Source: a virus
Taxonomy: Duplodnaviria; Heunggongvirae; Uroviricota; Caudoviricetes
Length of the DNA: 37,726 nt
Strand: one strand, 5' to 3'
Virus record (IMG/VR): IMGVR_UViG_2711768052_000002
Below, piece after piece: positions 143 to 18,075 of the stretch; positions within the stretch are counted from its first letter, which is position 1; each line of letters starts with the position of its first letter. Under the pieces are notes generated by a model that was not told where the DNA came from, did not search any database, and worked only from the letters and a program-made list of their open reading frames with translations. Position numbers and translations under genes: made by a program.

Positions 143-871
143 ATGATTTTTAGGGATAGCTTGAGAGTATTACCTTATGGTCGAGTAGATAATGATTTCT
201 TCCAGATAGAAGAAAGACGTTCATGGAATGCAGGGCGATATTATTGGTCTAATAGAAGGATTTTTGGTTATATTGGAATTACTCAATCCAGTAATAAAGA
301 GCTGAAAGATAAGTCGGGGAGAGAGGGATTCATAAGAAACCAGGCTGCAAGAGAACTGAAAACTATTATATCTAATTTGTTAACTGAACTTGCTGATAGA
401 TTTTTTGGTTCACGTTCTGATGACCGTAAAGAGCTTTTAGAACAAGTTAAGCGTGAAAAAGAGTTAAGAAAATCTGCTCAACAACAAGCTCGAAAATCAA
501 CACAAAAAAGTTTTTCAGAAGCTTTGAAGAATCAGACACCAGTTCTTGATGCTTCCTTGGAGGCTGTTAAAAGGCTGAAAACTAAGCTTGATAAAACTGA
601 TGGTTCGTTAGATTTAAACTATCTTAAAATTATAGACAGTGATCTTACAAACTTAGATGCGTTGCGCAGTGAAATTAAAACGCCTATCAAACCTCCAAAA
701 CTTGGAATGTATGAAGAGAAATATAGAGACTACAGAGATAAATTTAATGAGTTCTCTGCGTATATTCTACAAATGAAGTTAGCAATTAATAAACTTGATT
801 CTGAATTAAATAAACTTGAGCCTTCATTGTCAGCGAAAAATCACCTTGAAAAAAAATCAAGGTATTATTAA
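143..871 (+). CDS. N-terminal coiled-coil/sensor-like segment of a histidine-kinase-like protein (probably the 5' part of one gene continued in 816..1862 after a frameshift)
   Basis: ATG at 143 follows an in-frame stop at 14..16; Lys/Glu-rich heptad-like sequence (ELLEQVKREKELRKSAQQQARKS); ORF ends right after an A8 run (~848..855) while the downstream histidine-kinase frame is already open from ~810. Confidence 0.45.
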   Translation: MIFRDSLRVLPYGRVDNDFFQIEERRSWNAGRYYWSNRRIFGYIGITQSSNKELKDKSGREGFIRNQAARELKTIISNLLTELADRFFGSRSDDRKELLEQVKREKELRKSAQQQARKSTQKSFSEALKNQTPVLDASLEAVKRLKTKLDKTDGSLDLNYLKIIDSDLTNLDALRSEIKTPIKPPKLGMYEEKYRDYRDKFNEFSAYILQMKLAINKLDSELNKLEPSLSAKNHLEKKSRYY

Positions 872-1862: not shown

Positions 1863-1863
1863 T

Positions 1864-3612
1864 ATGACAGTGGCAAATTATAATTCTCTTGTCCAGAAAA
1901 CTTTCTGCGAAAATGCAATTCGTTCCGTTGTCATGATTGATGACGATTTTCTGACGTATTCTGAATCAATCAGGGCGTTGAATAACGAAGTTGATTTAGA
2001 CTACAACAAAATTGACTCATCTAAACGAGCCGCTACTCTTGAGAGCTTTTTTCAATCTAAAAATATGATTTGTGATGTTGACAATGGTTCTGTTAATTTC
2101 GATGTGGATCGGATTAGAAAATCAGATCTTATTATTGTAGATTATCATCTTGATAATAATGCACCTGATAAAACACTTAAACCATTACAAGATTTGAAAG
2201 ACTCCGATCATTTAAATATGATTGTAATATATACTAGAGAGAATTTAGAAACGGTTTGGATGCAGATATCATCGACTCTCAAAGGTGCTCTGGATATCAA
2301 CAGCTTGATCATTGACTACGATAATGAAGATGTCCAAAGTTATTGGGAAGACGTTGTATTACCGAACTTAAATGATAATGGTAATAAAGCTCTCACAAGA
2401 GATGAAACAATAGCCTATATTAAAGACAGTAAGCCTTGTAGAAGAATTAAAAGATTAATACATGATGATGCTGTGTTGGAGGATCAAAAGGATAAAAACT
2501 TCATTGCAAAAATGATTGCAGAATATGCTGTGTCTAGAAATGCAATTATTTCTAGCAACACATCTGGCAATGTCATTCGGGGTGATGAAAGCGGAGTAAA
2601 ATGGATTCAATGTGGTAATATCTTTGTCTCCCTATTTCATAAGGTTCAAGATGATCATGAAAACGATGGAGATAGGATTTGGCAAACTCTCAATGATTCT
2701 CTCATTGAATGGAAACCATCTTATTATCAGTTAATAAAATCTGAAATTCAGAATGCAATCGAAGCTGAGGCTTTATCTTTTGTAAATCATTTGGCTAACG
2801 ATCATTACGGTCAAGCTGCGTGGTTAAATGAGATATTAAAATCAGACTCGCCTGATATTAGATGTAGAAATATTGACTTTGTATTTGGTAATTTATCAGA
2901 AGAGCTTTATCAAAGACTTAAAAATAATAATACGCTGGATGAATTTATCAAAAGTGTTTTTGATAGCTATTCAAATGAATACGCTAACAGCGGAGTTGCT
3001 GCATTGCTCCAATATTGCTCTTCAAAAATGGATCTGCCATCAAATAATGATACTTATCACGAAATGTATCATGCTTTAAATATGAATTTGTCTTCAAAGA
3101 ATTTTGAAGATGGTCATATTTCTACTGGCACTATTTTCTTTGATACAGAGTCGAACAAATGGTATTTATGTGTATCTGCGGCATGTGATTTGGTTCCTAC
3201 TCAGGGTAACGACCCTCACCATGTAAGATTAAGTCCGCACAGGCTCATTAAAGTTCTGGAGCTTTTTAACGCCAGTCAGAGTAAAGCATTGCCATTTGCT
3301 GAACATTCGAAATATATATATGTAATGCATAAAAATCAAAGAAAATATCTCTCTATTTTCGAAGGGGATAAAACGCTTCCTGTTGTTGATTATATGGTGG
3401 TGTTGAATCATGGAACAACAGTTGATGGCGAAGAAAAAAATATTATTTCTGCCGTGTTTTTAAGTAATATGGATGGCAACGTGCAAAATGTTCCTGTCCG
3501 ACTCAAACTTAAATCTCAACTGAGAACTGGTTATGCAGAAAGATATCAGGCTATAGCGTCTCAGTATAGCTCAAGGATTGGTGTGGATTATGTATCAATG
3601 ATGCTACCATAA
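1864..3612 (+). CDS. receiver (REC)-like domain protein with ~430-aa C-terminal domain of unknown function (candidate effector)
   Basis: N-terminal receiver-like motifs: VVMIDDDF (acidic pocket), DLIIVDYHLD (candidate phospho-Asp), MIVIYTREN (conserved Thr). Start placed at ATG 1864, just after the upstream stop with GGAG upstream; track alternative is ATG 1846. No recognisable motif in the C-terminal two thirds. Confidence 0.55.
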   Translation: MTVANYNSLVQKTFCENAIRSVVMIDDDFLTYSESIRALNNEVDLDYNKIDSSKRAATLESFFQSKNMICDVDNGSVNFDVDRIRKSDLIIVDYHLDNNAPDKTLKPLQDLKDSDHLNMIVIYTRENLETVWMQISSTLKGALDINSLIIDYDNEDVQSYWEDVVLPNLNDNGNKALTRDETIAYIKDSKPCRRIKRLIHDDAVLEDQKDKNFIAKMIAEYAVSRNAIISSNTSGNVIRGDESGVKWIQCGNIFVSLFHKVQDDHENDGDRIWQTLNDSLIEWKPSYYQLIKSEIQNAIEAEALSFVNHLANDHYGQAAWLNEILKSDSPDIRCRNIDFVFGNLSEELYQRLKNNNTLDEFIKSVFDSYSNEYANSGVAALLQYCSSKMDLPSNNDTYHEMYHALNMNLSSKNFEDGHISTGTIFFDTESNKWYLCVSAACDLVPTQGNDPHHVRLSPHRLIKVLELFNASQSKALPFAEHSKYIYVMHKNQRKYLSIFEGDKTLPVVDYMVVLNHGTTVDGEEKNIISAVFLSNMDGNVQNVPVRLKLKSQLRTGYAERYQAIASQYSSRIGVDYVSMMLP

Positions 3613-3684
3613 TTATTATATTTTAGGCGTGGTGATTTTTTTTTCGCCATGCCTATTTTATATTTATCATCACAATGATGTTGT

Positions 3685-4101
3685 TTATTTTTGTTTAAGT
3701 CTTCTAAGCTTCATGCATTCTAATGAGAATAATAATAGAGTTGTGCTGTATATAAAGCCAGAGTTAGTTAATAACTTTAAATTTAATGCTTCAGGATTTT
3801 CACTGAGAAAGTGAAAGGCATAAACTAAGTATACAGCTAAAGTAGCCGTTCCAATTGTTGGTCCAATATCGCCTTGATCATGAGGTTCAAGGTTTACATT
3901 GAACTTGAAGATTAGCCATTCAAATCCCCAAGTAAAAAAAACAACTAATATCATGGCTGCGAATAATTTCGCGATGTTATCTGCTGATGGATTCATCAGA
4001 ACAGATTGTTTCTGAAAAAATTCACAAAGTGAGAGTCCGAAAAAAATAAAAAAAAGTGGTCTGGAACTAAATTTTTCAAAAACTTTGAATAGGGTTTCCA
4101 T
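3685..4101 (-). CDS. small integral membrane protein, hypothetical
   Basis: 138-aa ORF with 3-4 hydrophobic stretches (LFFIFFGLSL, AAMILVVFFTWGFEWLIF, TATLAVYLVYAF, IYSTTLLLF); AT-rich; convergent with the kinase/receiver pair. Confidence 0.45.
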   Translation of the reverse strand: METLFKVFEKFSSRPLFFIFFGLSLCEFFQKQSVLMNPSADNIAKLFAAMILVVFFTWGFEWLIFKFNVNLEPHDQGDIGPTIGTATLAVYLVYAFHFLSENPEALNLKLLTNSGFIYSTTLLLFSLECMKLRRLKQK

Positions 4102-4139
4102 TTTCTTTACCTTCAGGATTATATTAGCTATTCTGATAC

Positions 4140-5411
4140 TTAGGCTACCAGAGCATTTGATCTTTGAGCTTGAACGTAATCACTCCACCATTGCATCAAA
4201 CTCTGTCGCTCTATCAGATATTCTGCACGATTGTATGCTGCGATAATTTCATCTTTTTTCGAGTGGGCAAGCGCTGCCTCAAGAACTTCAGCTCTGAATT
4301 TACCAGACTCCTCTGCCGCTGTTCGTGCAATAGAACGCATACCGTGAGCTACAAGCTCGCCTCCGAACCCCATTCGGATGATAGCTGCGTTGGCTGTTTG
4401 TTCATGCATATGATTAAGAGGCGCTTTTATGCTGGGGAAAACCCATTCTCTATGCCCACTTATTGATTTCATTAATTCAAGGATGCGCAAAGCTTCTTTA
4501 CTCAAAGGAACTTTGTGAAGCTTTTTCATTTTCATGAAATCAGCAGGAATGTTCCAAATGCTGTTGGTTGTATCAATATCAGACCACCTTGCGCGAACGG
4601 CTTCACCCGGACGAACCCATGTCAACAATTGCCATTCAATTAGCATACGTGTTTCCAACCGGATTGACGCATTCGTCAAAGATTCCATAAACCTTGGCAA
4701 TTCGCTTGGGGGAAGGGCAGGCATATTTTGCTTTTTTGGTTTACTGAATCTTTGACCAAGGTTGTCAGCCGGGTTGAACTCAATAAGTTCTTCAGTAGCT
4801 GCCCACCGGAAGATTTCATTCAGACGTGAAATGATACGGCGTAGAGTTTCCAATACGCCTCGTTGCTCAATAGGATCAAGGTGTTGTTTTAAGAGCTTAG
4901 GTCGGATCTCATTGATAGGGACATTACCCAGACCGGGAAAGACATTTCTCTCTAAGCTGCGCCAGATGTCTGCTGCATGGTCTTGTGAGATACCTGATGT
5001 CTTTACCTTCTCATCTAACCATTTCCGCGCTACGGCTTGGAGAGTGTGCTCAGTAGCACTCTTTAATGCCTTCGCCTTATCGTTGTTATGGATTTGGGGA
5101 TCAACACCATTTGCCAGAAAGGAGAGATATTCATCACGTAAGGCTCTGGCTCTTGCAAGGGTAAGGTGAGGATATGTCCCAAGGCTCATTTTGGTTCTTT
5201 TCTTGCTCACTGGTACTGCATACCTGAAATACCAATTTTTCTTGCCTCCTTTCGCCAAAGGAGCGATTCGTAGAATCAGACCATCACCGTCAAACAAGTT
5301 GATTTCTTTATCGGCTGGCTTGGTGCTTTTGATTTCAGTGTCAGTGAGCTTCTTAGCGATTTTTGCCATTTTGGGACCCTCGGTTTTTGGACCCTTCTTA
5401 GTGGGTCCCAT
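4140..5411 (-). CDS. int: tyrosine-type site-specific integrase, P4 family
   Basis: N-terminal arm-binding signature LTDTEIKSTKP...LFDGDGLILRI...KNWYFRY typical of P4/CP4-57 IntA-type integrases; C-terminal catalytic region (HGMRSIARTAAEESG, AAYNRAEY); sits next to the ssrA 3' fragment. Confidence 0.9.
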   Translation of the reverse strand: MGPTKKGPKTEGPKMAKIAKKLTDTEIKSTKPADKEINLFDGDGLILRIAPLAKGGKKNWYFRYAVPVSKKRTKMSLGTYPHLTLARARALRDEYLSFLANGVDPQIHNNDKAKALKSATEHTLQAVARKWLDEKVKTSGISQDHAADIWRSLERNVFPGLGNVPINEIRPKLLKQHLDPIEQRGVLETLRRIISRLNEIFRWAATEELIEFNPADNLGQRFSKPKKQNMPALPPSELPRFMESLTNASIRLETRMLIEWQLLTWVRPGEAVRARWSDIDTTNSIWNIPADFMKMKKLHKVPLSKEALRILELMKSISGHREWVFPSIKAPLNHMHEQTANAAIIRMGFGGELVAHGMRSIARTAAEESGKFRAEVLEAALAHSKKDEIIAAYNRAEYLIERQSLMQWWSDYVQAQRSNALVA

Positions 5412-6436: not shown

Positions 6437-7612
6437 TTAATTAGTACAATTTATCAAATGATTGTGTGTGCTATTGTTATCATAATCTTTAAGATAACGG
6501 CCGTAATGCCTAAATAGCATTTCTGGTCCTTTATGCCCCATTTGAGCGGCTAACCAAAACAAATTAACACCTTGACTAATGTGTTTTGTAGCAAATGTAT
6601 GTCTAGTTTGATAAGGATTACGGTAACGGACTCCGGCTTTACGTAAAGTTGGCACCCATGCCTTCTTTCTTATGGCGTCTGCGCTGGCCCAAGGTTTATT
6701 GGTTTTTGGATCTTCAAAGACAGTCGCGTCCTTCATGAAAGTGAACGGTTTCTGATTTATTAGTGCAGACATTGCTTCATCTGTCAGTTCAACTTTTCGA
6801 GTACCTGCTTTTGTTTTGGTACCTTTGATTACACCAACAACACTGGCGCTCTGGACGTGGGCAGTCCTCCCTACAAAGTCAATATCACGCCATCTAAGGG
6901 CACATAATTCAGAACTACGCAGACCTGTATTTATAGCGAACCGGAACAGATTCTCCCATTGTTTGTTTCCGGCTGCTGCTAGTAATGCATCAACTTCTGC
7001 TGGTGATAGCGGATCAACCACGTAGCGGCTTTCTGCTTCTGACTTATCACTTTGGTAGCGCGAAGCAGTTACCAACGATACGGGGTTAATTTGAAGTACC
7101 CCATCGGTTACGGCTTCATCAAGTGCTGACCGCAGGAAAGATAACTGGTTGCGAATTGTTTTTAAGGTCGTTTTCTGGCTTTGAATCCACGCTTTCAGGA
7201 TTGCTGGTGTTAATTCACTTGCAGAGCAAATGTGGAGTGAGGCTAACGCACTACGGCATTTTTTATAACCACCAATCGTAGAGGGTGAAAGTTTTCTCGT
7301 TTCGCAGATTTCAAGGTATTCGTCCAAGTACATTTTTACCGTTTTGCCTGCAGCAGCATTACCAAAAATTTTCAAACGAGCAGAACGGGGAAAATATTCC
7401 GCATAAATGAATGTTCCCCTTTCGATCTTATTATGAATTTCACCGAGTGTGCGCTCGGCGTATTTTATGTTCTTTGGTGTTACTTCCAGATTGGAAAGAG
7501 GCTCACGACATTTAACTCCTTTGTAGGTGAAAGTTATATTGATCGTTTCGCCCTGGCGGTGTTTCCTGATTGTTACGCCGCGCGGTAGTTTGAGCAGTTT
7601 TGTCTGGCCCAT
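6437..7612 (-). CDS. int: tyrosine-type integrase, lambda family
   Basis: 391 aa; catalytic-domain motifs (GLRSSELCALRWRDID, HKGPEMLFRHYGRYL with catalytic Tyr context, RHTFATKHI); 5' end overlaps the upstream xis-like ORF as in lambda. Confidence 0.9.
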   Translation of the reverse strand: MGQTKLLKLPRGVTIRKHRQGETINITFTYKGVKCREPLSNLEVTPKNIKYAERTLGEIHNKIERGTFIYAEYFPRSARLKIFGNAAAGKTVKMYLDEYLEICETRKLSPSTIGGYKKCRSALASLHICSASELTPAILKAWIQSQKTTLKTIRNQLSFLRSALDEAVTDGVLQINPVSLVTASRYQSDKSEAESRYVVDPLSPAEVDALLAAAGNKQWENLFRFAINTGLRSSELCALRWRDIDFVGRTAHVQSASVVGVIKGTKTKAGTRKVELTDEAMSALINQKPFTFMKDATVFEDPKTNKPWASADAIRKKAWVPTLRKAGVRYRNPYQTRHTFATKHISQGVNLFWLAAQMGHKGPEMLFRHYGRYLKDYDNNSTHNHLINCTN

Positions 7613-7791
7613 TTTGCAACCTCACTAAGATCAATCCACCTCTCCTTAACGCCTTCAACCTTTAAAACCTGAACACCTTCACGCCAAACACCGCGCTGTA
7701 CACGTTTGTTTATTGCTTCAGGAGTTTCGCCAGTTTCTTTGCAATAAGTTGAGATTGGAACACAATCGAGGTTCAGCATATGTTTCTCCAC
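7573..7791 (-). CDS. xis: excisionase (Xis-like) / AlpA-type DNA-binding protein
   Basis: 72-aa basic protein directly upstream of and overlapping int; winged-helix-like segment ETPEAINKRVQRGVWREGVQ resembles the lambda Xis pattern. Confidence 0.6.
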   Translation of the reverse strand: MEKHMLNLDCVPISTYCKETGETPEAINKRVQRGVWREGVQVLKVEGVKERWIDLSEVAKWARQNCSNYRAA

Positions 7792-8348
7792 TTAGCCCGC
7801 TGCACACGGGCAGTAATATCAAATTTCAGTGCATCTTGTCGGAATAAACCTCTGCCAGATAGCAGAAACATATTTTGCCTGAGGGCGGGCATCAGCCAGA
7901 GCACCTCTGCAGGGGCGGTTAGTTTCTCCACAAAACAGAGAAGAACACCTGCGGTAGTCACTGCCGGATGGATTGGGTTATGAGCCCATCGTCCGGTGAT
8001 GCTCTTCTCTGTTTTGTAAAAATGATGGTACCAGCCGGAAGCAAGGGTACAAGCTGGTACCGCCAAGACTACACACAGCATAAAGTTGTGGTGCCGGGTG
8101 CCTCCCGGTGCCTGGCGAAGGTTGCACACCAGGCGGGTGGGTATCCACAGAAGGTCGACTGTCAGCCTCAACCTTAACCCGCGTGCGCTGAGCCGCATTC
8201 ACCACAACGCTAAGGATTCTCTCTGGTTGAAAATACTTAGCTGTTATGTGCCTGCTTTTAGCCACATCAGGCGAGGTGGACCTAGTTATTCCCCAACAAC
8301 AAGGATTCGGTTAATCTGGTTATCCCCAACAACGCAAAAGGAAAAGAA

Positions 8349-8783
8349 ATGTCCGGTAATATCTATACGCTGTACAAATCCCACTGTGAAAATGTTGGAA
8401 AGTATCGGGGCATTGAAATCAGTGGGGTAGTGTCATCAGTCGAAATAAGCAAAGTTGAATCAAGGGCAACATTACTTACTCTTTTGGACCTTGTCTTACA
8501 TGAGCACCGGAAGAAATTCGGCACTCCCTATAATCAGTTGAATGGGAAAAAGGCTCTGGTTCACCTTATTCTGATGAAGCATCACTGGATGCCAAAACAG
8601 ATTAATGAGATGAAATTTGATGAACTTCTTCTTTCAATTCAGGATGAACTCACACTTGATAAAATAAGCGTAACCGCCCAGAAATTTTTAGATTATCGAG
8701 ACTGGAGATCACAAATTCATCACTTTGATGATTTTGACGAAAATGAATGGGATCCTAATTTGTCTGCACAATATCTAAAGTAA
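8349..8783 (+). CDS. hypothetical protein (AT-rich, early-left region)
   Basis: 144-aa ORF starting 8 nt after a GGAAAAG purine-rich stretch; no recognisable motif. Confidence 0.45.
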   Translation: MSGNIYTLYKSHCENVGKYRGIEISGVVSSVEISKVESRATLLTLLDLVLHEHRKKFGTPYNQLNGKKALVHLILMKHHWMPKQINEMKFDELLLSIQDELTLDKISVTAQKFLDYRDWRSQIHHFDDFDENEWDPNLSAQYLK

Positions 8784-8976
8784 CATCCTGTGATAAAACC
8801 GTGATTTCCTGATCCAGTTTTTTTAAGGAGTCTATTGTTTCCTGTCGATAAGACAGCACTTCACGAAGCTGGTTTATAGCTGCCAGCTTCTTTGTCATCC
8901 ACTCATAAATTTCCTCATCTGTGTAGCCAGGCGCGACGATTTTGGGTTCTGTTTTGTGCATTTCACATCTCCTCAA
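8755..8976 (-). CDS. hypothetical small protein
   Basis: 73-aa ORF, convergent with 8349..8783, amphipathic/coiled-coil-like (LREVLSYRQETIDSLKKLDQEI); weak support. Confidence 0.3.
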   Translation of the reverse strand: MRRCEMHKTEPKIVAPGYTDEEIYEWMTKKLAAINQLREVLSYRQETIDSLKKLDQEITVLSQDVTLDIVQTN

Positions 8977-9018
8977 GTTATCAGTTACTTGTTGATGGGG
9001 ACCAGATTGTTAAAGAGC

Positions 9019-9044
9019 TAAGCGTCCTGTAGGGCGCTTTTTTG
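9019..9044 (+). terminator. putative intrinsic terminator hairpin with T-tract
   Basis: AGCGTCCT-GT-AGGGCGCT imperfect stem followed by TTTTTT; between the early-left small genes and the 3' end of cI. Confidence 0.35.
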
Positions 9045-9195
9045 TTGCTAACGAATCATCCTGGACTTCATATGCCCCAGGCGGCTACTTCGTGGGCGTC
9101 CTGCCTGTTCGTTGTTTCGCTTGGGTACATTATGTATCTCAAAGGTACATTGTCAAGTATAAAAAAACCTGCCGAAGCAGGTTCATAAACATTGA

Positions 9196-9870
9196 TTAGG
9201 CTTTGATTTTGTATCTTCTTGGTTTTCCTGAGAAAATCACTGTACCAATTATAGAGCAATTACCGTTGATCTTAATGTAAGGCTCAGGCCAGTTTGGGTT
9301 TAACGCTTTGAGATAACGCTGTGTCCCATCTTCTATCAACCTTTTGAAGGTGGTTTCGCCTGTATCGTGCATCAATGCAATAACGTCGTCACCGTGGCAG
9401 GCAGGTACTTCAGGATCGACAAAAATCATGTCTCCCGGGCGGTACTCATCAATCATTGAATCACCTATCACCCGCAAGATATAAGTCATTTCCCCACAGG
9501 GTACAGGGCAGGGATACGTTTCTGCTGTGCTCAAATCAACCTCAGAATATCCAACTTCTTTCCATGCTCCGGCCTGTACCCATGATATGACAGGGACTAA
9601 TGTGATTTGTTTATTAGTGATTGAAACATCAGGTTTTTTTGTGATGTTCGTTGTCTGGTGTTCTTGATCGAGCCATCCGACAGGCAGGTCGAAACATTTT
9701 TCGATGTGTCGTGCCATGCTGTCACCGATATTTTTAGTAGCACCATCTCCCATAAACCTGCTGGTCTGGGTTGGCTCGCGATCAATCATAGTGGCAAAGG
9801 AAGAATTCCCGCCAACACCATCTCTCAGTTTTCTGGCGTTAGACCGCCGGATGTCATGGATTGTTTTCAT
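9196..9870 (-). CDS. cI: CI-like phage repressor (N-terminal HTH, C-terminal LexA/S24 peptidase autocleavage domain)
   Basis: C-terminal S24 signature VIGDSM with downstream Lys-containing segment; N-terminal DNA-binding region; divergent from a cro-like gene across an operator-bearing intergenic region. Confidence 0.85.
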   Translation of the reverse strand: MKTIHDIRRSNARKLRDGVGGNSSFATMIDREPTQTSRFMGDGATKNIGDSMARHIEKCFDLPVGWLDQEHQTTNITKKPDVSITNKQITLVPVISWVQAGAWKEVGYSEVDLSTAETYPCPVPCGEMTYILRVIGDSMIDEYRPGDMIFVDPEVPACHGDDVIALMHDTGETTFKRLIEDGTQRYLKALNPNWPEPYIKINGNCSIIGTVIFSGKPRRYKIKA

Positions 9871-9885
9871 AACGAAATTAAAACC

Positions 9886-9955
9886 CTTGTACCGTTAAGG
9901 TACAAGTATCTTGAAGGTTCATTTCAATCATGTAATATGTACACCGGAGGTACAT
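9886..9955. promoter_or_regulatory. immunity-region operator/promoter (OR/PR-like)
   Basis: Two palindromes sharing a GTAC core: CTTGTACC-GTTAA-GGTACAAG (9886..9906) and ATGTAC-ACCGGAG-GTACAT (9937..9955); sigma70-like -35 TTGAAG (9911..9916) and -10 TAATAT (9933..9938) at 16-nt spacing, then GGAGG RBS and cro ATG at 9961. Confidence 0.55.
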
Positions 9956-9960
9956 ATTGT

Positions 9961-10161
9961 ATGAAAGCGTATTGGGACTCTTTAACCAAAGAACAGCAGG
10001 GCGAGTTGGCCGGAAAAGTTGGCTCAACACCTGGCTACTTACGGCTGGTTTTCAATGGCTATAAAAAAGCCAGTTTTGTGCTGGCTAAAAAACTTGAGCA
10101 ATGCACGTCAGGTGCAATTACGAAATCTGACTTAAGACCGGATATCTATCCGAAAGATTAG
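9961..10161 (+). CDS. cro: Cro-like HTH regulator
   Basis: 66-aa ORF divergent from cI with RBS GGAGG; HTH-like segment LAGKVGSTPGYLRLVFNG. The track's longer ORF (9658..10161) overlaps cI and is rejected. Confidence 0.6.
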   Translation: MKAYWDSLTKEQQGELAGKVGSTPGYLRLVFNGYKKASFVLAKKLEQCTSGAITKSDLRPDIYPKD

Positions 10162-10192
10162 CAGAACACTTTCAATTTTTAACCACAGAACG

Positions 10193-10756
10193 ATGAGGCT
10201 AACCGTGGGTAAGCATCACTGGAAAATAGAAAAACAGCCTGAGTGGTACGTGAAAGCTGTCAGAAAAACTATCGCGGCGTTGCCGGGTGGTTACGCTGAA
10301 GCGGCTGACTGGCTCGATGTAACAGAAAACGCTTTATTCAACCGCCTTCGTGCAGATGGCGATCAGATTTTCCCGCTGGGATGGGCAATGGTTTTACAGC
10401 GTGCTGGTGGCACTCACTTCATTGCTGATGCTGTGGCGCAGTCTGCAAATGGCGTCTTTGTGTCTCTTCCTGACGTGGAGGATGTGGACAACGCCGATAT
10501 CAACCAACGCCTGCTGGAAGTCATTGAACAGATCGGCAGTTATTCAAAACAGATTCGTTCAGCAATTGAAGACGGTGTAGTGGAACCGCATGAGAAGACA
10601 GCAATTAACGATGAGCTGTACCTCTCAATTTCGAAGCTGCAGGAGCATGCAGCACTGGTCTACAAAATCTTTTGCGTTTCAGAAAGTAGTGACGCCCGCG
10701 AGTGTGCAGCTCCGGGCGCCGTGGCGTGTCGTGACTGTGGAGAAACTAACGCATGA
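10193..10756 (+). CDS. phage regulatory protein, CII-like (phage 186 CP76-type pattern)
   Basis: Position directly after cro; central region [47 protein letters not shown] resembles the recalled CP76-family pattern; C-terminal Cys-rich tail. Confidence 0.45.
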
Positions 10757-11091
10757 ACAGTTTAACAACACACTACCGTCGCTCGCAACTGATTGCGCTT
10801 CCTGTACCGGGTGGAAAAGCGAAGGTGGAGTATTGCTATGCAGTAAATGTACCAGGTGACAGGGAAATTGTAACCCACAGCTTTGCAGAGTGGGCTGTGG
10901 GTGATTTCAACCGGCAGAAGGAGACAGTCCTTTGCGACAAGTTAACCGCTGGTTCAAAGATCACTACGGAGTGCCCGTCAGAGTCATTCGTTGGGAGCCG
11001 GAAACACAACGGGTTATCTACCTCTGTGAAGGCTATGAGCATGAGTGCTTCAGCCCGCTCGAACAGTTTCGTTGTAAATTCAGGGAAATAG
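10753..11091 (+). CDS. hypothetical protein
   Basis: 112-aa ORF with ATGA start/stop overlap with the upstream gene (translational coupling); no motif recognised. Confidence 0.35.
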
Positions 11092-11100
11092 AGGTCGGTC

Positions 11101-12042
11101 ATGAGCACTAAATTAACCGGCTATGTATGGGATGGTTGCGCTGCATCAGGCATGAAATTATCCAGCGTGGCAATTATGGCCCGCCTGGCTGATTTCAGTA
11201 ATGACGAAGGTGTGTGCTGGCCATCAATTGAAACCATTGCCCGTCAGATTGGCGCGGGGATGAGTACCGTCAGAACGGCTATCGCACGGCTGGAAGCAGA
11301 AGGCTGGTTAACGCGTAAGGCGCGTCGCCAGGGTAACCGCAATGCGTCGAATGTTTATCAGCTTAACGTTGCGAAGCTTCAGGCAGCGGCATTTTCTCAA
11401 CTGTCAGATTCTGACCCGTCAAAATCTGACGCATCAAAATCTGACCCGTCAAAATTTGATGCGTCGAAATCTGGCAAAAAAGCGGGTTTTCACCCGTCAG
11501 AATCTGGCGGGGATCCGTCAGTAAAATCAAAACATGATCCGTCAGATAAAAAAACTTCTCGTCCGGACGCTTCGCAACCGGACACGCAGACGGCTGAACA
11601 GGAGTTTTTAACTCGCCATCCTGATGCGGTTGTATTCAGCCCTAAAAAGCGCCAGTGGGGAACGCAGGATGATTTGACCTGCGCACAGTGGCTCTGGAAA
11701 AAAATCATCGCCCTGTACGAGCAGGCCGCCGAATGTGACGGCGAGGTGGTTCGTCCCAAAGAACCGAACTGGACAGCCTGGGCAAACGAAATTCGCCTGA
11801 TGTGTGTGCAGGATGGTCGTACTCACAAACAAATCTGCGAGATGTACAGCCGCGTCAGCCGCGATCCGTTCTGGTGCCGTAACGTGCTCAGCCCGTCGAA
11901 GCTGCGGGAAAAATGGGATGAGCTTTCCCTGCGCTTATCGCCGTCCGTCAGCATGTACACCGAAAAACGCGAAGACCCGTACTTCAAAGCCAGTTACGAC
12001 AATGTGGACTACAGCCAGATCCCGGCAGGATTCAGGGGGTGA
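11101..12042 (+). CDS. replication initiator, lambda O-like (N-terminal HTH DNA-binding domain, internal iteron-encoded linker)
   Basis: N-terminal HTH segment (IETIARQIGAGMSTVRTAIARLEAEGWL); central low-complexity SDPSKSDASKSDPSKFDASKS encoded by tandem iterons; position after cII-like gene. Confidence 0.7.
   Translation: MSTKLTGYVWDGCAASGMKLSSVAIMARLADFSNDEGVCWPSIETIARQIGAGMSTVRTAIARLEAEGWLTRKARRQGNRNASNVYQLNVAKLQAAAFSQLSDSDPSKSDASKSDPSKFDASKSGKKAGFHPSESGGDPSVKSKHDPSDKKTSRPDASQPDTQTAEQEFLTRHPDAVVFSPKKRQWGTQDDLTCAQWLWKKIIALYEQAAECDGEVVRPKEPNWTAWANEIRLMCVQDGRTHKQICEMYSRVSRDPFWCRNVLSPSKLREKWDELSLRLSPSVSMYTEKREDPYFKASYDNVDYSQIPAGFRG
11405..11555 (+). repeat. candidate replication-origin iterons inside the O-like gene
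   Basis: At least four tandem 15-bp units CTGAC(C/G)C(G/A)TCAAAAT (about 11411..11470), more degenerate copies (CCGTCAGAATCTGG, CCGTCAGTAAAATC, CCGTCAGATAAAAA), then an A-rich stretch. Confidence 0.5.
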
Positions 12043-12533
12043 TCATGAGTCTTTTGAATGACGTTCAGAAATTCATTGAAGCCCATCCGGGGTGTACTTC
12101 CGGAGACATTGCGGATGCTTTTGCAGGTTACTCACGACAGCGCGTTCTGCAGTCAGCAAGCAAGTTACGTCAGAGTGGGCGTGTGGCTCACCGTTGTGAA
12201 GGGGATACACGCAGACATTTCCCGCGCCTGACTGAGAGAGCGCAGGAGCCGGAACCACAACCAGTTCGTGAAACCAGACCTGTGCGCAATTTCTATGTCG
12301 GCACTAACGATCCCCGGGTGATTTTGTGCCTGACCCGCCAGGCTGAAGAACTGGAGTCAAGGGGCTTATACCGTCGTGCTGCAACCGTGTGGATGGCGGC
12401 ATTCCGTGAAAGCCACTCCCAGCCAGAACGAAACAATTTTCTGGCGCGTCGTGAGCGGTGCTTACGGAAAAGCAGCAAGCGCGCTGCATCGGGTGAAGAG
12501 TGGTATCTGTCAGGGAATTACGTGGGGGCTTAA
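12039..12533 (+). CDS. hypothetical basic protein (possible DNA-binding, follows replication initiator)
   Basis: 164-aa Arg-rich ORF beginning at GTG overlapping the O-like stop; no confident family assignment. Confidence 0.45.
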   Translation: MIMSLLNDVQKFIEAHPGCTSGDIADAFAGYSRQRVLQSASKLRQSGRVAHRCEGDTRRHFPRLTERAQEPEPQPVRETRPVRNFYVGTNDPRVILCLTRQAEELESRGLYRRAATVWMAAFRESHSQPERNNFLARRERCLRKSSKRAASGEEWYLSGNYVGA

Positions 12534-13186
12534 TGAGTAATAAATATTGCCAGGCGCTGGTGGAACTGCGGAACAAACCAGCCCATGAACTGAAGGAAGT
12601 GGGCGATCAGTGGCGCACGCCGGACAACATTTTCTGGGGAATTAACACCCTGTTTGGCCCGTTTGTTCTGGATCTGTTCACTGACGGTGATAACGCCAAA
12701 TGTGCTGCGTATTACACGGCGGAAGACAACGCGCTGGCGCATGACTGGTCAGAACGTCTTGCGGAGCTTAAAGGGGCTGCCTTTGGTAATCCCCCATACA
12801 GCCGCGCCAGTCAGCATGAGGGACAATACATCACCGGCATGCGTTACATCATGAAACATGCCAGTGCCATGCGTGATAAGGGTGGGCGCTATGTTTTCCT
12901 GATCAAAGCTGCCACCAGCGAAGTGTGGTGGCCGGAAGATGCAGATCATATTGCTTTTATTCGCGGGCGTATTGGTTTTGAACTGCCTGCCTGGTTTATC
13001 CCGAAGGATGAGAAGCAGGTGCCGACAGGCGCTTTCTTCGCTGGTGCTATTGCTGTTTTCGACAAGACCTGGAAGGGACCGGCAATCAGCTACATCGGGC
13101 GCGATGAACTTGAGGCATGTGGTGAGGCCTTTCTGGCGCAGGTTCGCCAGCAGGCGGAAAAACTGGTCAGGGAGATGGCGGCATGA
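12533..13186 (+). CDS. phage N6-adenine DNA methyltransferase (Dam-like, orphan)
   Basis: Catalytic motif FGNPPYS (NPPY/DPPY motif IV of N6-adenine methyltransferases); start placed at ATG overlapping the upstream stop (TAATG); no adjacent restriction endonuclease gene. Confidence 0.8.
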   Translation: MSNKYCQALVELRNKPAHELKEVGDQWRTPDNIFWGINTLFGPFVLDLFTDGDNAKCAAYYTAEDNALAHDWSERLAELKGAAFGNPPYSRASQHEGQYITGMRYIMKHASAMRDKGGRYVFLIKAATSEVWWPEDADHIAFIRGRIGFELPAWFIPKDEKQVPTGAFFAGAIAVFDKTWKGPAISYIGRDELEACGEAFLAQVRQQAEKLVREMAA

Positions 13187-13509
13187 CGACATTAACTCAA
13201 TGCCAGCAGCAGGTGCTGGATATGCTGATTTCTTATCAGAAAGAGCGTGGCTTTCCGCCAACCAATCAGGAGGTGGCAACCATGCTGGGATACCGTTCGG
13301 TGAATGCAGCGGTGGAGCATCTTCGCGCACTGGAGAAAAAAGGCGTCATCACGATAAAGCGTGGCGTGGCCCGGGGGATAACGCTTCATACCGCGGTGAA
13401 GGACGACGACAGCGAGGCGGTCGGGATTATCCGCGCACTGCTTGCCGGTGAGGAAAACGCAAGGCTGCGTGCAACCCACTGGTTACATGAGAGGGACCTG
13501 AAAGTATGA
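13183..13509 (+). CDS. LexA N-terminal DNA-binding-domain-like protein (no peptidase domain)
   Basis: TQCQQQVLDMLISYQKERGFPPTNQEVATMLGYRSVNAAVEHLRALEKKGVI parallels E. coli LexA residues ~1-70 (recalled ...[52 protein letters not shown]...); the ORF stops after 108 aa with no S24 motif. Confidence 0.65.
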   Translation: MTTLTQCQQQVLDMLISYQKERGFPPTNQEVATMLGYRSVNAAVEHLRALEKKGVITIKRGVARGITLHTAVKDDDSEAVGIIRALLAGEENARLRATHWLHERDLKV

Positions 13510-13895
13510 AGCTGATCCTGCCTTTTCCGCCCAGCGTGAACACGTACTGGCGACACCCCAACAAAGGGGCGTTTGCTGGTAAGAGCCTGATAAGCGCGGC
13601 GGGGCGAAAATTCCAGAGCGCGGCGTGCGCAGCAATAGTTGAGCAGTTACGTCGTCTGCCGAAACCAACGTCGGCACCTGCTTCAGTGGAGATCGTGTTG
13701 TTTCCTCCGGATAACCGGATCCGCGATCTTGACAACTATAACAAGGCGCTGTTTGACGCCCTGACCCACGCGGGTGTGTGGGAAGACGACAGTCAGGTGA
13801 AAAGAATGCTGGTGGAGTGGGGGCCGGTTATCCCGGAAGGGAAGGTCGAGATCACTATCAGTAAGTACGAGAAAACGGCGGGTGCAGCCGCCTGA
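13506..13895 (+). CDS. rusA: RusA-family Holliday junction resolvase
   Basis: Size 129 aa and conserved RusA pattern (LPFPPSVNTYWRH, catalytic-region DLDNYNKALFDALTHAGVWEDDSQV). Confidence 0.85.
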   Translation: MKLILPFPPSVNTYWRHPNKGAFAGKSLISAAGRKFQSAACAAIVEQLRRLPKPTSAPASVEIVLFPPDNRIRDLDNYNKALFDALTHAGVWEDDSQVKRMLVEWGPVIPEGKVEITISKYEKTAGAAA

Positions 13896-13914
13896 TTAAG
13901 AGGAGAAACGAAGT

Positions 13915-14712
13915 ATGAATAATCTGATGGTCATTGATGGTATTGAAGTTCGTCGTGATGCTTATGGGCGTTACAGCCTGAACGATCTGCACAGGGCTGC
14001 CGGTTCTCAGGATAAGCATAAGCCTGCATTCTGGCTCCGCAATGAGCAAACCGAACGTTTAATAAGCGAGTTGCAGATTTGCAACTCGGTCAATATAGAG
14101 CCAGTTAACGTTAGTCGTGGCGGAAATAACCAGGGGACGTATGTCTGCAAAGAACTGGTGTATGCCTATGCAATGTGGATCAGCCCGTCATTCCATCTGA
14201 AGGTGATCCGTACTTTCGATATGGTAACCAGCGCACCGGAAAAATTATCCGGGCAGGCTGCTGACAAGATGCAGGCTGGCGTGATTCTGCTGGACTTTAT
14301 GCGCCGGGAGTTAAACCTGTCTAACTCATCTGTGCTTGGGGCCTGTCAGAAACTCCAGGAGGCTGTTGGCTTACCGAATCTGGCACCACGCTATGCCATT
14401 GATGCTCCTGCTGACGCGCCTGATGGCTCAAGTCGCCCTACGCTGTCGCTGAGTGCACTGCTGAAACAGTATGGTATCCGCCTGACAGCTAATCAGGCAT
14501 ATCACCAGATGGCGAAGCTGGGGATCGTTGAACAACGCGAACGATACAGCCGTACCGCGATTAACAACATCAAAAAATTCTGGTCGCTGACGGCGAAAGG
14601 CTGCATGTTCGGCAAGAACATCACCAGTCCTGCAAATCCACGCGAGACGCAGCCGCATTTCTTCGAATCCCGATTCCCTGAGCTGTTAAAGCTGCTCGAT
14701 ACCGTTCATTGA
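13915..14712 (+). CDS. KilA-N domain protein (antirepressor-like)
   Basis: N-terminal KilA-N-like pattern (YSLNDLHRAAG...KPAFWLRNEQTERLI); strong RBS AGGAG upstream. Confidence 0.7.
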   Translation: MNNLMVIDGIEVRRDAYGRYSLNDLHRAAGSQDKHKPAFWLRNEQTERLISELQICNSVNIEPVNVSRGGNNQGTYVCKELVYAYAMWISPSFHLKVIRTFDMVTSAPEKLSGQAADKMQAGVILLDFMRRELNLSNSSVLGACQKLQEAVGLPNLAPRYAIDAPADAPDGSSRPTLSLSALLKQYGIRLTANQAYHQMAKLGIVEQRERYSRTAINNIKKFWSLTAKGCMFGKNITSPANPRETQPHFFESRFPELLKLLDTVH

Positions 14713-14713
14713 G

Positions 14714-15709
14714 GTGACCGTGAGAGCACTACTGACCCCTGAAATTGCCCCGCGTATGGGGATCGTATTGTTCAGACCAGGTTCAGAGCTGATGCCCCTG
14801 TTTATGCAGGGGCGTGTACTGCTGGAGCCTGAGCCGGAACGTTATTCATCTTTCGCCAGTGGTGCCGTTCCCGCGGCATCACAACCGCTGGCGGATGATC
14901 CTGCTGTTCGGGCCGTGTTCCGCAATGAGGCAGTGATCCGTCGTGCTGGTGGCGTGGAATGTCTTGAAAGCTGGTTACTTCGTGAAAAAGGCTGCCAGTG
15001 GCCTCATTCCGACTGGCACAGCGAGAACATGACCACAATGCGACACGCTCCGGGCGCAATCCGTCTGTGCTGGCACTGTGATAACCAGCTGCGCGATCAG
15101 TTCACGGAACGGCTGGAATCAATGGCAACGGATAACTGTGCCCGCTGGGTGTTGTCTGTTGTGCGTCGGGATCTCGGTTTTGATGATAGTCACGTTGTGA
15201 CAATGCCGGAACTGTGCTGGTGGCTGATTCGTAATGACCTGGCGGATGCCTTACCGGAAAGTGCAGCCCGTAAGGCACTGAGATTACCAAAGCCTGTTGT
15301 GCCGTCTGTCACCCGGGAAAGTGACCTTGTGCCTTCGGTTCCTGCCACCAGCATCATCCAGGATAAGGCAAAAAAGGTGCTGGCGCTGAAAGTGGATCCG
15401 GAGTCGCCGGAGTCTTTTATGTTACGCCCAAAACGTCGCCGCTGGGTTAATGAGAAGTACACGCGCTGGGTTAAGACACAGCCGTGTGCATGTTGTGGAA
15501 AGCCCGCTGATGATCCCCACCACCTGATAGGCCACGGTCAGGGGGGAATGGGTACAAAAGCGCATGACCTCTTTGTGTTGCCTTTGTGCAGAAAGCATCA
15601 CGACGAGCTGCATGCGGATACCGTGGCATTTGAAGAGAAGTATGGCTCCCAGCTGGAGCTGATATTTCGTTTTATCGATCGTGCGCTGGCAATTGGCGTG
15701 CTGGCCTGA
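14714..15709 (+). CDS. DUF968-like protein (C-terminal Cys/His zinc-binding, HNH-like)
   Basis: C-terminal CACCGKPADDPHHLIGHGQGGMGTKAHDLFVLPLCRKHHDELH; common in the nin region of lambdoid prophages. Confidence 0.5.
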   Translation: MTVRALLTPEIAPRMGIVLFRPGSELMPLFMQGRVLLEPEPERYSSFASGAVPAASQPLADDPAVRAVFRNEAVIRRAGGVECLESWLLREKGCQWPHSDWHSENMTTMRHAPGAIRLCWHCDNQLRDQFTERLESMATDNCARWVLSVVRRDLGFDDSHVVTMPELCWWLIRNDLADALPESAARKALRLPKPVVPSVTRESDLVPSVPATSIIQDKAKKVLALKVDPESPESFMLRPKRRRWVNEKYTRWVKTQPCACCGKPADDPHHLIGHGQGGMGTKAHDLFVLPLCRKHHDELHADTVAFEEKYGSQLELIFRFIDRALAIGVLA

Positions 15710-15726
15710 TTTGGTGGAGAAAGTTG

Positions 15727-16092
15727 ATGCGTGATATTCAGATGGTTCTTGAGCGTTGGGGAGCATGGGCGGCGAGTGATAGTTCAGGCGTTGACTATTC
15801 ACCTATAGCTGCTGGGTTTAAGGGACTTCTTCCCTATACCAGCAAGAAACGCTTGGCTTGTTCGGATAGTGATGCATTAATTATTGAAGGTTGTCTTGCT
15901 CGTCTAAAGCAAAAAAGACCTTATGAGCATTCGCTTCTTGTGGCACATTATTTATACAGAATATCCAAGCGTAAGATTGCAAAGGCGCGTGGAAAGGATG
16001 AGAAATTGATACGTATAGAAATACAGCTAGCCGAAGGATTTATTGATGGCTGCCTTTCCATGCTAGATCTAACATTAGATTTGGACGTTTAA
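15727..16092 (+). CDS. Q: late-gene antiterminator Q (phage 82/21 type)
   Basis: N-terminus MRDIQMVLERWGAWAA and overall size match the recalled phage-82-type Q family; ATG 15727 preferred over the track's TTG 15724. Confidence 0.8.
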   Translation: MRDIQMVLERWGAWAASDSSGVDYSPIAAGFKGLLPYTSKKRLACSDSDALIIEGCLARLKQKRPYEHSLLVAHYLYRISKRKIAKARGKDEKLIRIEIQLAEGFIDGCLSMLDLTLDLDV

Positions 16093-16093
16093 T

Positions 16094-16118
16094 AATACGC
16101 CCCATGCAGGGGCGTATT
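16094..16118. terminator. perfect hairpin between convergent Q and KAP-NTPase genes (possible bidirectional terminator)
   Basis: AATACGCCCC-ATGCA-GGGGCGTATT, 10-bp perfect arms; lies between the Q stop (16092) and the minus-strand stop at 16121. Confidence 0.45.
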
Positions 16119-16120
16119 AT

Positions 16121-17452
16121 TTACTGGATGAATGACATTTGATTAATATATTTTATCAATAACTCTCTGGGTGTAGTACTCCAAAAATTTAGGTGTTCAT
16201 AATCAGTATAAACATTGGTGAATTTTTTAAGTTCTTCATCACTTTTAGGGGCAAATCGCTCATTAAGAGTAATACTGTCTTTAATTATTCCGAAGAATAC
16301 AATAGATATTTCAGGAATTTGCGATCTTCTCTCATAAGAATAAGGTATTTCTTTTATGTTAAGCAGATCTGCTAAATGAGATATAGATTCTGCGGTAATT
16401 TCTTGTTTTAGTTTTTCCTTGTCACCAAAGCAATGTATGAAGACAGCTACGACAAAGATCTTATTTATTAAAGGATCACTGTTTTTGTACTCATCGTCGT
16501 TTAATAGTTGAAAAATGTTAAGATTGCGTGAAAAAGTTTGTGTTTCACGTAAGGATAAGTTGGTTCGTTGAATTAAATCACGGATAAATCTACCAGATAA
16601 ACTATTAATTTCATTTAATGATTTTGTCTTGTCTACAAGGTAATTCCAATATATAACAGATGTTTTACATACGACGTGACCATTTATTAAACATGTGTCT
16701 GGAAGCGTGATGGTATATTTTATAAACTTGTCAAGATACTTTTGTGAGTTAATACTATAACCATAAATATGATTTATCGATGCTTTTAATTGTTCTGTGT
16801 TTGTAACTAAAATAAAAAAGACATTATTGATGTCAAAAATGTGTTTTATTGTTTCAATGACATTTGTTGAAAAACTCGGCTTACATCGGTCTAATTCATC
16901 AATTATAATTACTATCTTTTGACTTTCTGAAATGCTTTCGATACAAGATTTAAGTGAATTTATGTTTTTCTCTGATTCCATATGGTCTTCAAGCAAATTT
17001 TCAATAGTCCCATCTATTGCTGCATTGCTTGCTTTCTTCATCGCATCTTGGAATTCTTCGGAAACTTCACTAGCCTCCTGTCGTAAAAACCAACCTGCAC
17101 CAGCTTTTAGTACCGTTTTTAAACCAAAGCGAATTGCAGGAAGAGATCTCTTAATGAAGTGTTGTTTTTCTTCCTCAGGTAAAATGCTGGCAATTGCAGA
17201 GGTTATGAGAAGTAATGGAGATTCTGCATGATCCCCTTTAAAGGCATCAATATAAACAACTTTAGATTCAGTTTCTTGCTCAATAATGAGATTTTTCAGT
17301 TTGATACTAAATTCTGTTTTCCCTGTTCCCCATGCGCCGTCTATTACCAGTGGTGAAATGTCTGCCTCTGGTTTTAGCAACTTGATGATATTTTCAGCGA
17401 TGTTTCTGCGTTGGAACTCGTCACGTTCAGTGAAAGATAGTGTATCTAACAT
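16121..17452 (-). CDS. KAP-family P-loop NTPase (moron cargo)
   Basis: Walker A in KAP form GAWGTGKTEF and Walker B IVIIIDELDRCKP (the DELDR signature typical of KAP NTPases); AT-rich; opposite strand to the phage operons; inserted between Q and the late terminator. Confidence 0.7.
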   Translation of the reverse strand: MLDTLSFTERDEFQRRNIAENIIKLLKPEADISPLVIDGAWGTGKTEFSIKLKNLIIEQETESKVVYIDAFKGDHAESPLLLITSAIASILPEEEKQHFIKRSLPAIRFGLKTVLKAGAGWFLRQEASEVSEEFQDAMKKASNAAIDGTIENLLEDHMESEKNINSLKSCIESISESQKIVIIIDELDRCKPSFSTNVIETIKHIFDINNVFFILVTNTEQLKASINHIYGYSINSQKYLDKFIKYTITLPDTCLINGHVVCKTSVIYWNYLVDKTKSLNEINSLSGRFIRDLIQRTNLSLRETQTFSRNLNIFQLLNDDEYKNSDPLINKIFVVAVFIHCFGDKEKLKQEITAESISHLADLLNIKEIPYSYERRSQIPEISIVFFGIIKDSITLNERFAPKSDEELKKFTNVYTDYEHLNFWSTTPRELLIKYINQMSFIQ

Positions 17453-17575
17453 AATATAAACCTATTAACTCCTACAGTAAAAAACGAATAATACGACTTT
17501 GGGATTAAAAATCATTAACGCGGTCCGCAAAAATTCTTGTAATCTGTTAAGAGTGGTTACTTCGCCACACAGCTT

Positions 17576-17608
17576 AAACCCGCCGTCGAGCGGGTTTTGT
17601 CGTTTTTG
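17576..17608 (+). terminator. tR'-like intrinsic terminator upstream of lysis genes (expected Q antitermination target)
   Basis: AAACCCGC-CGTCGA-GCGGGTTT stem followed by TGTCGTTTTTGTT; located ~140 nt upstream of the holin gene. Confidence 0.5.
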
Positions 17609-17748
17609 TTGCTGGGGATTCGTTGGGCCTGGCCTATCCCGCAATTATCCATTGGTTCGGCTCTTTGACGTTTCCGCTTCTGATTTGCGGTACATGATGT
17701 TCCCTCAATTTGCACCTGCTGTATCAGCGAGGTGAGAGATAACTACAA

Positions 17749-18075
17749 ATGCCTCATAACCCAAATACCTGGTTGGAGTTGGTCCAGAGCTGGTGGCGTG
17801 GAGACACACCGCTGGGCGCAGTGATTATGTCGATTGTTATGGCTGGCTTGCGCATTGCATATTTTGGCGGTGGTGGGGGCTGGAAACGAAAAACGCTCGA
17901 GATTTTGCTCTGTGGTGCTCTGACTCTGACTTTTGCATCCGCTCTTGAGTATGTCGGATGGCCTAAATCTCTTTCTGTTGCCATTGGTGGCGGCGTTGGG
18001 CTAATCGGGGTCGATGCTATTCGTGGGGCTGCAATGAGAGTAATCGGTAATAAGTTTGGTGGCTCTAAGGAGTAA
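17749..18075 (+). CDS. S: holin, lambda S family
   Basis: 108 aa with hydrophobic helices and pattern parallel to lambda S (GAVIMSIVMAGLRIAYFGGGG..., C-terminal charged tail); immediately precedes the endolysin. Confidence 0.7.
   Translation: MPHNPNTWLELVQSWWRGDTPLGAVIMSIVMAGLRIAYFGGGGGWKRKTLEILLCGALTLTFASALEYVGWPKSLSVAIGGGVGLIGVDAIRGAAMRVIGNKFGGSKE

Follow-up and report, generated by a model that had tools for sequence, protein, structure and literature searches.

What a phage might do with a LexA protein reduced to its DNA-binding domain is the question raised by a small gene at positions 13183-13509 of IMGVR_UViG_2711768052_000002, an IMG/VR record of 37,726 nucleotides assigned to the Caudoviricetes; this whole stretch is referred to as the window. 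The prophage in the window is lambdoid and SfII/SfV-like, its contractile tail being Mu-like, and the gene encodes a 108-aa protein which, judged by its sequence, is unable to self-cleave on RecA* as LexA does, since the S24 domain is absent. The reading that is tentatively preferred here is that of a RecA-insensitive LexA mimic, which would dimerize through a C-terminal hairpin, be made after induction and re-occupy LexA operators. The gene and the elements of its product are the following.

13183-13509, plus strand: LexA-like gene, encoding a 108-aa stand-alone LexA DNA-binding-domain protein (open reading frame list, Pfam, PHROG 362 and an annotated identical copy)
13170-13174, plus strand: Shine-Dalgarno-like GGGAG, 8 nucleotides 5' of the LexA-like ATG (sequence reading)
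13183-13386, plus strand: winged helix-turn-helix domain, residues 1-68 (AlphaFold, Foldseek match to 3jso, Pfam)
13297-13338, plus strand: Ser39 and recognition helix alpha-3, SVNAAVEHLRALEK (LexA alignments)
13387-13404, plus strand: flexible linker, residues 69-74 (predicted local distance difference test score, pLDDT, below 50 at residues 71-74)
13405-13491, plus strand: C-terminal helical hairpin, helices 75-88 and 93-103 (AlphaFold, pLDDT about 90)

The relationship to LexA was evident at both the sequence and the structure level. The Pfam profile PF01726 (LexA_DNA_bind) matched residues 1-65 over its full length (positions 1-65 of 65) with an E value of 2.9e-19 and 69 bits, the curated cutoff being 23.7 bits. 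Among Protein Data Bank sequences, phmmer matched the E. coli LexA DNA-binding domain (1lea, E 6e-16), and E. coli LexA was aligned by BLASTP at 43% identity across 90 residues (E 1e-21). An AlphaFold model of the monomer, computed with 23 family sequences as input, reached a mean pLDDT of 83.6 and a predicted template modelling score (pTM) of 0.57. In this model, helices at residues 6-22, 28-35 and 40-52 are followed by a beta-wing formed by residues 56-58 and 66-68, and Foldseek superposed it on the LexA-DNA complex 3jso with a root-mean-square deviation of 1.0 Å over 68 residues at 50% identity. The winged-helix domain is of the proteobacterial LexA type, and its fold is shared with the N-terminal domain of E. 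coli LexA (residues 1-84; 1lea, 3jso), the identity being 43-50% depending on the comparison. A preliminary description of this locus, made from the nucleotide sequence, had likened the first ~70 residues to the LexA winged helix, and both the Pfam alignment and the superposition bear this out. Extra positive charge as a compensation for the lost dimer was ruled out, as the net charge is +4 in the phage DNA-binding domain and in LexA alike.

The second half of LexA is missing. No match to the S24 peptidase domain PF00717 was found in the 108-aa protein by the Pfam scan, and the lexA equivalog model TIGR00498 scored 70.6 bits, under its cutoff of 110.95, with positions 1-91 of 203 alone being matched. 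The open reading frame 3' of the gene encodes RusA (PF05866), not a protease half. These results agree with the earlier statements that the frame stops at 108 aa without an S24 domain and that the phage-encoded product is not RecA-cleavable in the manner of LexA. With a DNA-binding domain present and the S24 module absent, which in LexA carries the Ser/Lys dyad and also forms the dimer interface, the predicted protein is not a LexA repressor proper, nor does it belong with lambda CI and other S24 repressors, whose genes diverge from cro and whose helix-turn-helix domain is joined to a self-cleaving S24 domain.

An Ala-Gly self-cleavage site in an extended loop was likewise not found in the 108-aa protein. 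HMMER and BLASTP aligned A88-G89 with LexA A84-G85, placing LLAGE opposite VAAGE. As a cleavage site or pseudo-substrate this part of the tail was rejected, because relatives have AN, VG, TR, SG, DD and other pairs in place of AG and the segment is confidently helical. The preliminary description had offered, as one of two roles, an antirepressor linking induction to SOS, and such a protein might act as a decoy that titrates LexA, CI or RecA*. Nothing direct speaks for this beyond the KilA-N and ANT-type genes found nearby in this phage group, and structurally it has no foundation. The entire C-terminal domain of LexA, with its dimer interface, catalytic cleft and RecA* contacts, is absent, and the resemblance of LLAGE to VAAGE is neither conserved nor placed outside a predicted helix. 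Moreover, the prophage CI is itself equipped with an S24 domain through which it is open to direct inactivation by way of RecA*, and expression of the LexA-like protein would follow derepression rather than precede it. An antirepressor is thus very improbable.

The gene itself is real, translated and under purifying selection. Compared with a Shigella flexneri prophage copy, dN was 0.008 and dS 0.14, giving a dN/dS of 0.06. The gene shares an ATGA with each neighbour: at 13183-13186 its ATG start (13183, identified by the open reading frame finder) overlaps the TGA of dam upstream, and at 13506-13509 its stop (13507-13509) does so with the rusA ATG, so that the gene has no non-coding DNA on either side. 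The low dN/dS, the coupled start and stop, the Shine-Dalgarno sequence and the conserved tail together indicate a gene and not a fragment, and they contradict the untranslated fragment for which the preliminary description had allowed. A decaying, functionless remnant of a captured lexA would account for the shortness of the frame, the absent catalytic half and the frameshifted or fused state of some database copies. Its probability is nevertheless close to negligible in view of the selection on the gene, its translation signals and a full-length match to PHROG 362 ('transcriptional repressor'; E 3.8e-59, residues 1-108 being aligned with all 106 positions of the profile), and of the persistence of frame, tail and synteny at 38-48% identity.

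The last 38 residues, comprising linker and hairpin, are conserved in relatives of 38-48% identity, and by this comparison the tail is not leftover sequence but defines a subfamily reaching down to ~40% identity. In a 23-sequence alignment of the family, the linker (69-74) varies in length and sequence, A97 and L101 in the tail are invariant, and A93 is nearly so. No solved structure resembling the hairpin was matched by Foldseek. The hairpin is proposed to be a dimerization element. The subfamily proteins P0126 and P0129 terminate in ...RRGSAA and the window protein in ...RDLKV. The ...RRGSAA end, which has no counterpart in the window protein, resembles the C-terminal AA signals recognized by ClpX; in the LexA fragment, the ...VAA terminus exposed by cleavage reportedly serves as a ClpX signal (Neher et al. 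2003).

In LexA, helix 3 contacts DNA through Ser39, Asn41, Ala42, Glu44 and Glu45 (PMC3091678), and the outer bases of the SOS box are read by Asn41 and a hydrophobic pocket (PMC5999292). Four of these five contacts, S39, N41, A42 and E45, are retained in the phage helix, the fifth being changed from E44 to V, and R64-G65 in the wing is the same as in E. coli LexA. Because of these shared contact and wing residues, a CTGT-type half-site is the likely target of the phage protein. Within the subfamily, S39 is invariant, N41 nearly so and E45 usually present, and most members show the helix pattern S-x-N-A-A-x-E-H-L even near 40% overall identity.

The occupation of SOS boxes, as supposed in the preliminary description, found no support within the prophage itself. 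Exact CTGT-N8-ACAG occurred 0 times in the window against 0.66 expected, and the 16 one-mismatch boxes in the window were at chance level (11.9 +/- 3.8 expected). By a weight matrix derived from 20 SOS boxes of E. coli, the top site in the window scored 15.4 and lay at 3744-3763 (TGCTGTATATAAAGCCAGAG), inside the 3' end of a 138-aa open reading frame of the neighbouring island. In 50 shuffles, the maximal scores had a 95th percentile of 16.1, close to this value, and the site was rejected as a target. Among CTGT/ACAG palindromes in the window, with spacings of 0-24 in both orientations, none was above expectation, and CTGTA half-sites were unclustered. ACTGTA was found 6 times versus 18 expected from a shuffle that did not preserve dinucleotides. 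The inverted repeats at 7600-18000 corresponded to cI/cro operators, iterons of the replication gene and terminators; no candidate for a phage operator was present among them, and no palindrome was conspicuous in the interval from Q to the lysis genes. As the prophage is devoid of SOS boxes, a LexA mimic would find its targets elsewhere, on the host chromosome or other elements.

These searches also bear on a different explanation, nearly as likely and itself doubtful, in which the protein, acting as an activator or a repressor, would be a phage-specific transcription factor that recognizes a non-SOS operator of its own. A precedent is gp6 of the Bacillus thuringiensis tectivirus GIL01, a truncated LexA homologue that is expressed early in lytic development and activates the late promoter P3 alongside host LexA, binding the palindrome GaCACAC GTGTGaC at -43.5 of P3, where it overlaps the -35 element, and not LexA boxes (PMC6182141). 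Both gp6 and the window protein are phage-encoded and each amount essentially to a LexA DNA-binding domain (PF01726). Stand-alone LexA domains of 65-150 residues are moreover frequent in viral proteomes and common across many phage groups, a large protein library containing 4611 cluster representatives at E <= 0.001, many of them short and some with tandem domains. The variability of the recognition helix within the subfamily, with E44 replaced throughout, would also suit a private operator. Yet no candidate for such an operator emerged from the repeats described above, CTGT palindromes and clusters were not enriched, and the gene module is without non-coding DNA of its own. Late genes are already covered by Q, and immunity by CI, the Cro-like and the CII-like protein. 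The identical protein also occurs with different immunity, replication and late modules, which disfavours a linked cis site.

The resemblance to gp6 is moreover limited. Orthology was rejected, as BLASTP gave no alignment at E <= 100 and the Pfam domain alone is shared; because of this lack of pairwise similarity, the two proteins are independent truncations from different LexA lineages. Whereas gp6 has 66 aa and no tail, the window protein has 108 aa and the hairpin tail, and the gp6 recognition helix (SHKTAHRYLMQL) is unlike that of E. coli LexA, to which helix 3 of the window protein is close. The phages differ as well. GIL01, which encodes no repressor itself, relies on host LexA and gp7, with tandem LexA boxes at its promoters, whereas the window prophage is equipped with an S24-type CI, Cro-like and CII-like proteins and Q, and is free of SOS boxes.

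The timing at which a LexA mimic would act depends on the genetic context. The prophage genes concerned are the following.

6437-7612, minus strand: integrase
9196-9870, minus strand: CI repressor, YmfK-like, with S24 domain (PF00717, E 1.5e-26)
9658-10161, plus strand: open reading frame of a Cro-like (YdaS-type) protein, with the YdaS-type domain in its last ~50 residues
10193-10756, plus strand: CII-like CP76 protein
11101-12042, plus strand: replication protein
12039-12533, plus strand: PerC/YfdN
12533-13186, plus strand: Dam-type N6-adenine methyltransferase (PF05869, E 1e-45; annotation of the identical locus by the Prokaryotic Genome Annotation Pipeline, PGAP)
13506-13895, plus strand: RusA Holliday-junction resolvase (PF05866)
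13915-14712, plus strand: KilA-N
14714-15709, plus strand: DUF968/HNH
15724-16092, plus strand: Q (PF06530)

The CI role is filled by the gene at 9196-9870, on the opposite strand and 3.3 kb from the LexA-like gene; a ymfK-like 'LexA family protein' occupies the same position as CI in the related E. coli locus L001. The order characteristic of the subfamily is rep-PerC-Dam-LexA_DBD-RusA-KilA-N-DUF968-Q, an early-right operon. A genome-wide retrieval of relatives yielded 12 loci, and the early-right (nin-type) position 5' of rusA and Q was observed in the window, L001, L002-L005, L006, L008 and SfV. The most constant neighbour of the family was rusA (L001-L005, L006, L008 and SfV). Relatives of 38-48% identity showed the series S24-type CI, Cro, CII-like, DUF4222, rep, (PerC), (Dam), LexA_DBD, RusA, (ANT or KilA-N), DUF968 and Q, and synteny was retained by relatives of 43-48% identity.

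The LexA-like gene is translationally coupled to dam and rusA within this rightward early operon, and no promoter was predicted directly 5' of it. The dam promoter annotated in SfV (TTGCGC / TACGGA) was rejected as a source of its transcript, being weak and altered at -35 in the window. Given the lack of an own promoter and the coupling inside the early-right operon, expression should be delayed-early, following derepression or infection, and should not take place in a quiescent lysogen. This speaks against the dominant repressor in the lysogen that the preliminary description had put forward as the other of its two roles.

The gene is invariably flanked by the replication gene (or dam) on one side and rusA on the other, and it is coupled to both. 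This raises a further explanation, namely a DNA-binding accessory of replication, methylation or recombination that might, for instance, support the replication protein at the origin or else direct RusA or Dam. Weak winged-helix matches to an O-like replication PHROG (E 0.009) and to the Pfam family DnaD_N (E 0.16) are consistent with it, as is the fact that no helicase loader was found among the annotated or Pfam-scanned genes from the rep gene to Q. Such a function is possible but improbable, because the similarity is specific to LexA (E 1e-19) and not to replication initiators, and the synteny of related mosaic phages is explicable by common descent. The iterons at 11403-11465 are in addition unlike CTGT sites. 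RusA and Dam of other phages are not known to require such a partner, which counts against it as well. The iteron-like repeats, four or so in number (GTCAGATTCTGAC, GTCAAAATCTGAC and similar), lie within the replication gene and presumably represent the phage origin, by analogy with lambda O.

The LexA mimic is ranked first because of the host-like recognition helix, the occurrence of the identical protein with different immunity, replication and late modules, the lack of a visible private operator and the absence of the parts that RecA* requires. Under this proposal, the protein would be made once the prophage CI is inactivated or a cell is newly infected, and the hairpin would join two chains in place of the C-terminal dimer of LexA. 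With its near-LexA helix the protein would read CTGT-type half-sites and, host LexA having been cleaved, the RecA*-proof mimic would re-occupy LexA-controlled operators. The outcome would be repression of SOS functions potentially harmful to the phage, such as SOS-induced toxins, colicin lysis genes and rivals with LexA-controlled antirepressors.

Two known situations resemble this proposal. The N-terminal fragment of cleaved LexA retains some SOS-box binding and repression unless it is removed by ClpXP, and this removal is needed for full SOS induction (PMC10584840). Like this fragment, the phage protein is without protease and dimerization domain. It differs in being the product of its own gene in a lytic operon instead of a cleavage product, and in having the 38-aa linker and hairpin and the E44V change, whereas the LexA fragment ends at the cleaved site. 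LexA(Ind-) alleles (G85D, S119A; 1jhf, 1jhh) provide a functional analogy, a LexA-type binder that RecA* would not inactivate, and they block SOS. The Ind- proteins, unlike the window protein with its other putative dimer module, are full-length dimers with native operator affinity.

Several points weigh against the LexA mimic. The proposed dimerization by the hairpin is derived from a monomer model with a pTM of 0.57, and the proposed binding of SOS boxes comes from sequence comparison. No subfamily member retains E44. Three diverged members also lack E45 and are changed at A42/A43, the corresponding segments being NTITGH, NTVFIH and NAVLLH. One of them is a Citrobacter prophage copy of about 66% identity, of which two variants have been sequenced, with NTITGH and NTIAGH. 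As the SOS box of the Citrobacter host is presumably the same as in E. coli while the helix is altered, the target may drift with the phage instead of being a fixed host box. The activator role of gp6 and its binding away from LexA boxes point in the same direction, and the benefit of SOS damping to the phage is a conjecture.

The LexA-like gene is already catalogued and very common, and not a new kind of element. At an identity of at least 95%, the 327-bp gene was present in 2233 of 5426 complete E. coli genomes (41%). An identical (100%) gene is annotated in E. coli NZ_CP080080 (RefSeq WP_000210155.1-type), and PGAP names the product 'LexA family transcriptional regulator' or 'LexA family protein'. 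It is carried by 54-63 sequenced phages, including SfII, SfV (orf42), SfIV, cdtI, mEp460, Ayreon, Stx2a_1447 and Stx2c phages, and the SfII record labels it 'LexA DNA binding domain protein'. The PHROG 362 protein of SfII, SfV, SfIV, cdtI, mEp460 and the Stx2a/Stx2c phages is the same protein, with 95-100% identity and a location between dam and rusA. A survey of Stx phages lists it, without further treatment, as 'pham 237, LexA family transcriptional regulator, pfam01726' in 15 phages (PMC8136144). Full-text literature searches on phage LexA-like proteins yielded no experimental work on the 108-aa protein, catalogue entries being the only mentions found.

As a sequence feature the 108-aa protein is thus ordinary, with a PHROG of its own and annotation in thousands of genomes. 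Its function matters, given its frequency and its presence in the medically relevant Stx2a, Stx2c, cdtI, SfII, SfV and SfIV phages. Should SOS boxes prove to be its target, the phage would encode an SOS off-switch that acts exactly when host LexA is gone. Such a switch would bear on SOS mutagenesis, on toxin and colicin release and on competition among co-resident prophages, with an induced prophage actively stopping SOS mutagenesis, colicin release and the induction of competitors in a cell soon to be lysed. The broad form of this proposal, that in ~40% of complete E. coli genomes induced prophages with a RecA-proof mimic, those of the Stx2, cdt and Shigella serotype-converting phages included, re-repress the host SOS regulon and the LexA-controlled genes of their rivals, is on balance unlikely. 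If a private operator were instead the target, the re-use of this DNA-binding domain of LexA by a phage as its own regulator would have a second, independent example, GIL01 gp6 being the first.

Several records were found to be mislabelled. The 108-aa protein appears in some phage records as 'SOS-response repressor and protease LexA' or 'RecA-mediated autopeptidases', and the adjacent Dam methylase appears in RefSeq phage entries as 'phosphoadenosine phosphosulfate reductase'. Four metagenomic proteins of 140-220 aa (P0130, P0131, P0156 and P0159) contain two tandem LexA DNA-binding domains and no S24 domain. By their domain layout they represent a covalent 'pseudo-dimer', an alternative use of the LexA domain without the LexA dimer module.

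A separate integrated island at 143-5411 adjoins the prophage integrase (6437-7612). None of the island proteins was matched by PADLOC, and its genes are the following.

Within 143-5411: unassigned 242-aa open reading frame
816-1862: histidine-kinase-like ATPase with HEF_HK domain
1846-3612: 588-aa Response_reg_2 protein
Within 143-5411: 138-aa open reading frame
4140-5411, minus strand: P4-type integrase

Between Q and the lysis genes, a KAP-family P-loop nucleoside triphosphatase (NTPase) of 443 aa is encoded at 16121-17452 on the minus strand, adjoined by a bidirectional terminator at 16091-16121. It matched the PADLOC candidate defence system PDC-S20 with an E value of 8e-177, and PifA and QatA more weakly, and is probably a prophage-borne anti-phage moron.

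Near-consensus SOS boxes were observed in sister prophages that also carry the LexA-like gene. In L006 (Shigella, 5103-5122) and L008 (Citrobacter, 1865-1884), the box lies within the linker-coding part of a different cI allele, which encodes a 230-aa protein with helix-turn-helix and S24 domains. The L006 box reads TACTGTATATAAAAACAGTA on the coding strand, and that of L008 differs by one spacer change; CTGT-N8-ACAG is kept between the two while flanking codons differ. Host LexA may bind inside this cI gene, whereas the window cI allele is without a box of this type. Another SOS box, TACTGTAAAAATAAACAGTG, a strong one, was detected in L001 (18987-19006) and SfV (L018; 34170-34189) with a weight-matrix score of 22.4, above every shuffle maximum. 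It spans codons 3-9 of a DNA methyltransferase moron (SfV orf48) located between Q and the holin gene, which suggests a LexA-controlled moron in the sister phages. In the window, this methyltransferase moron is replaced by the KAP NTPase.

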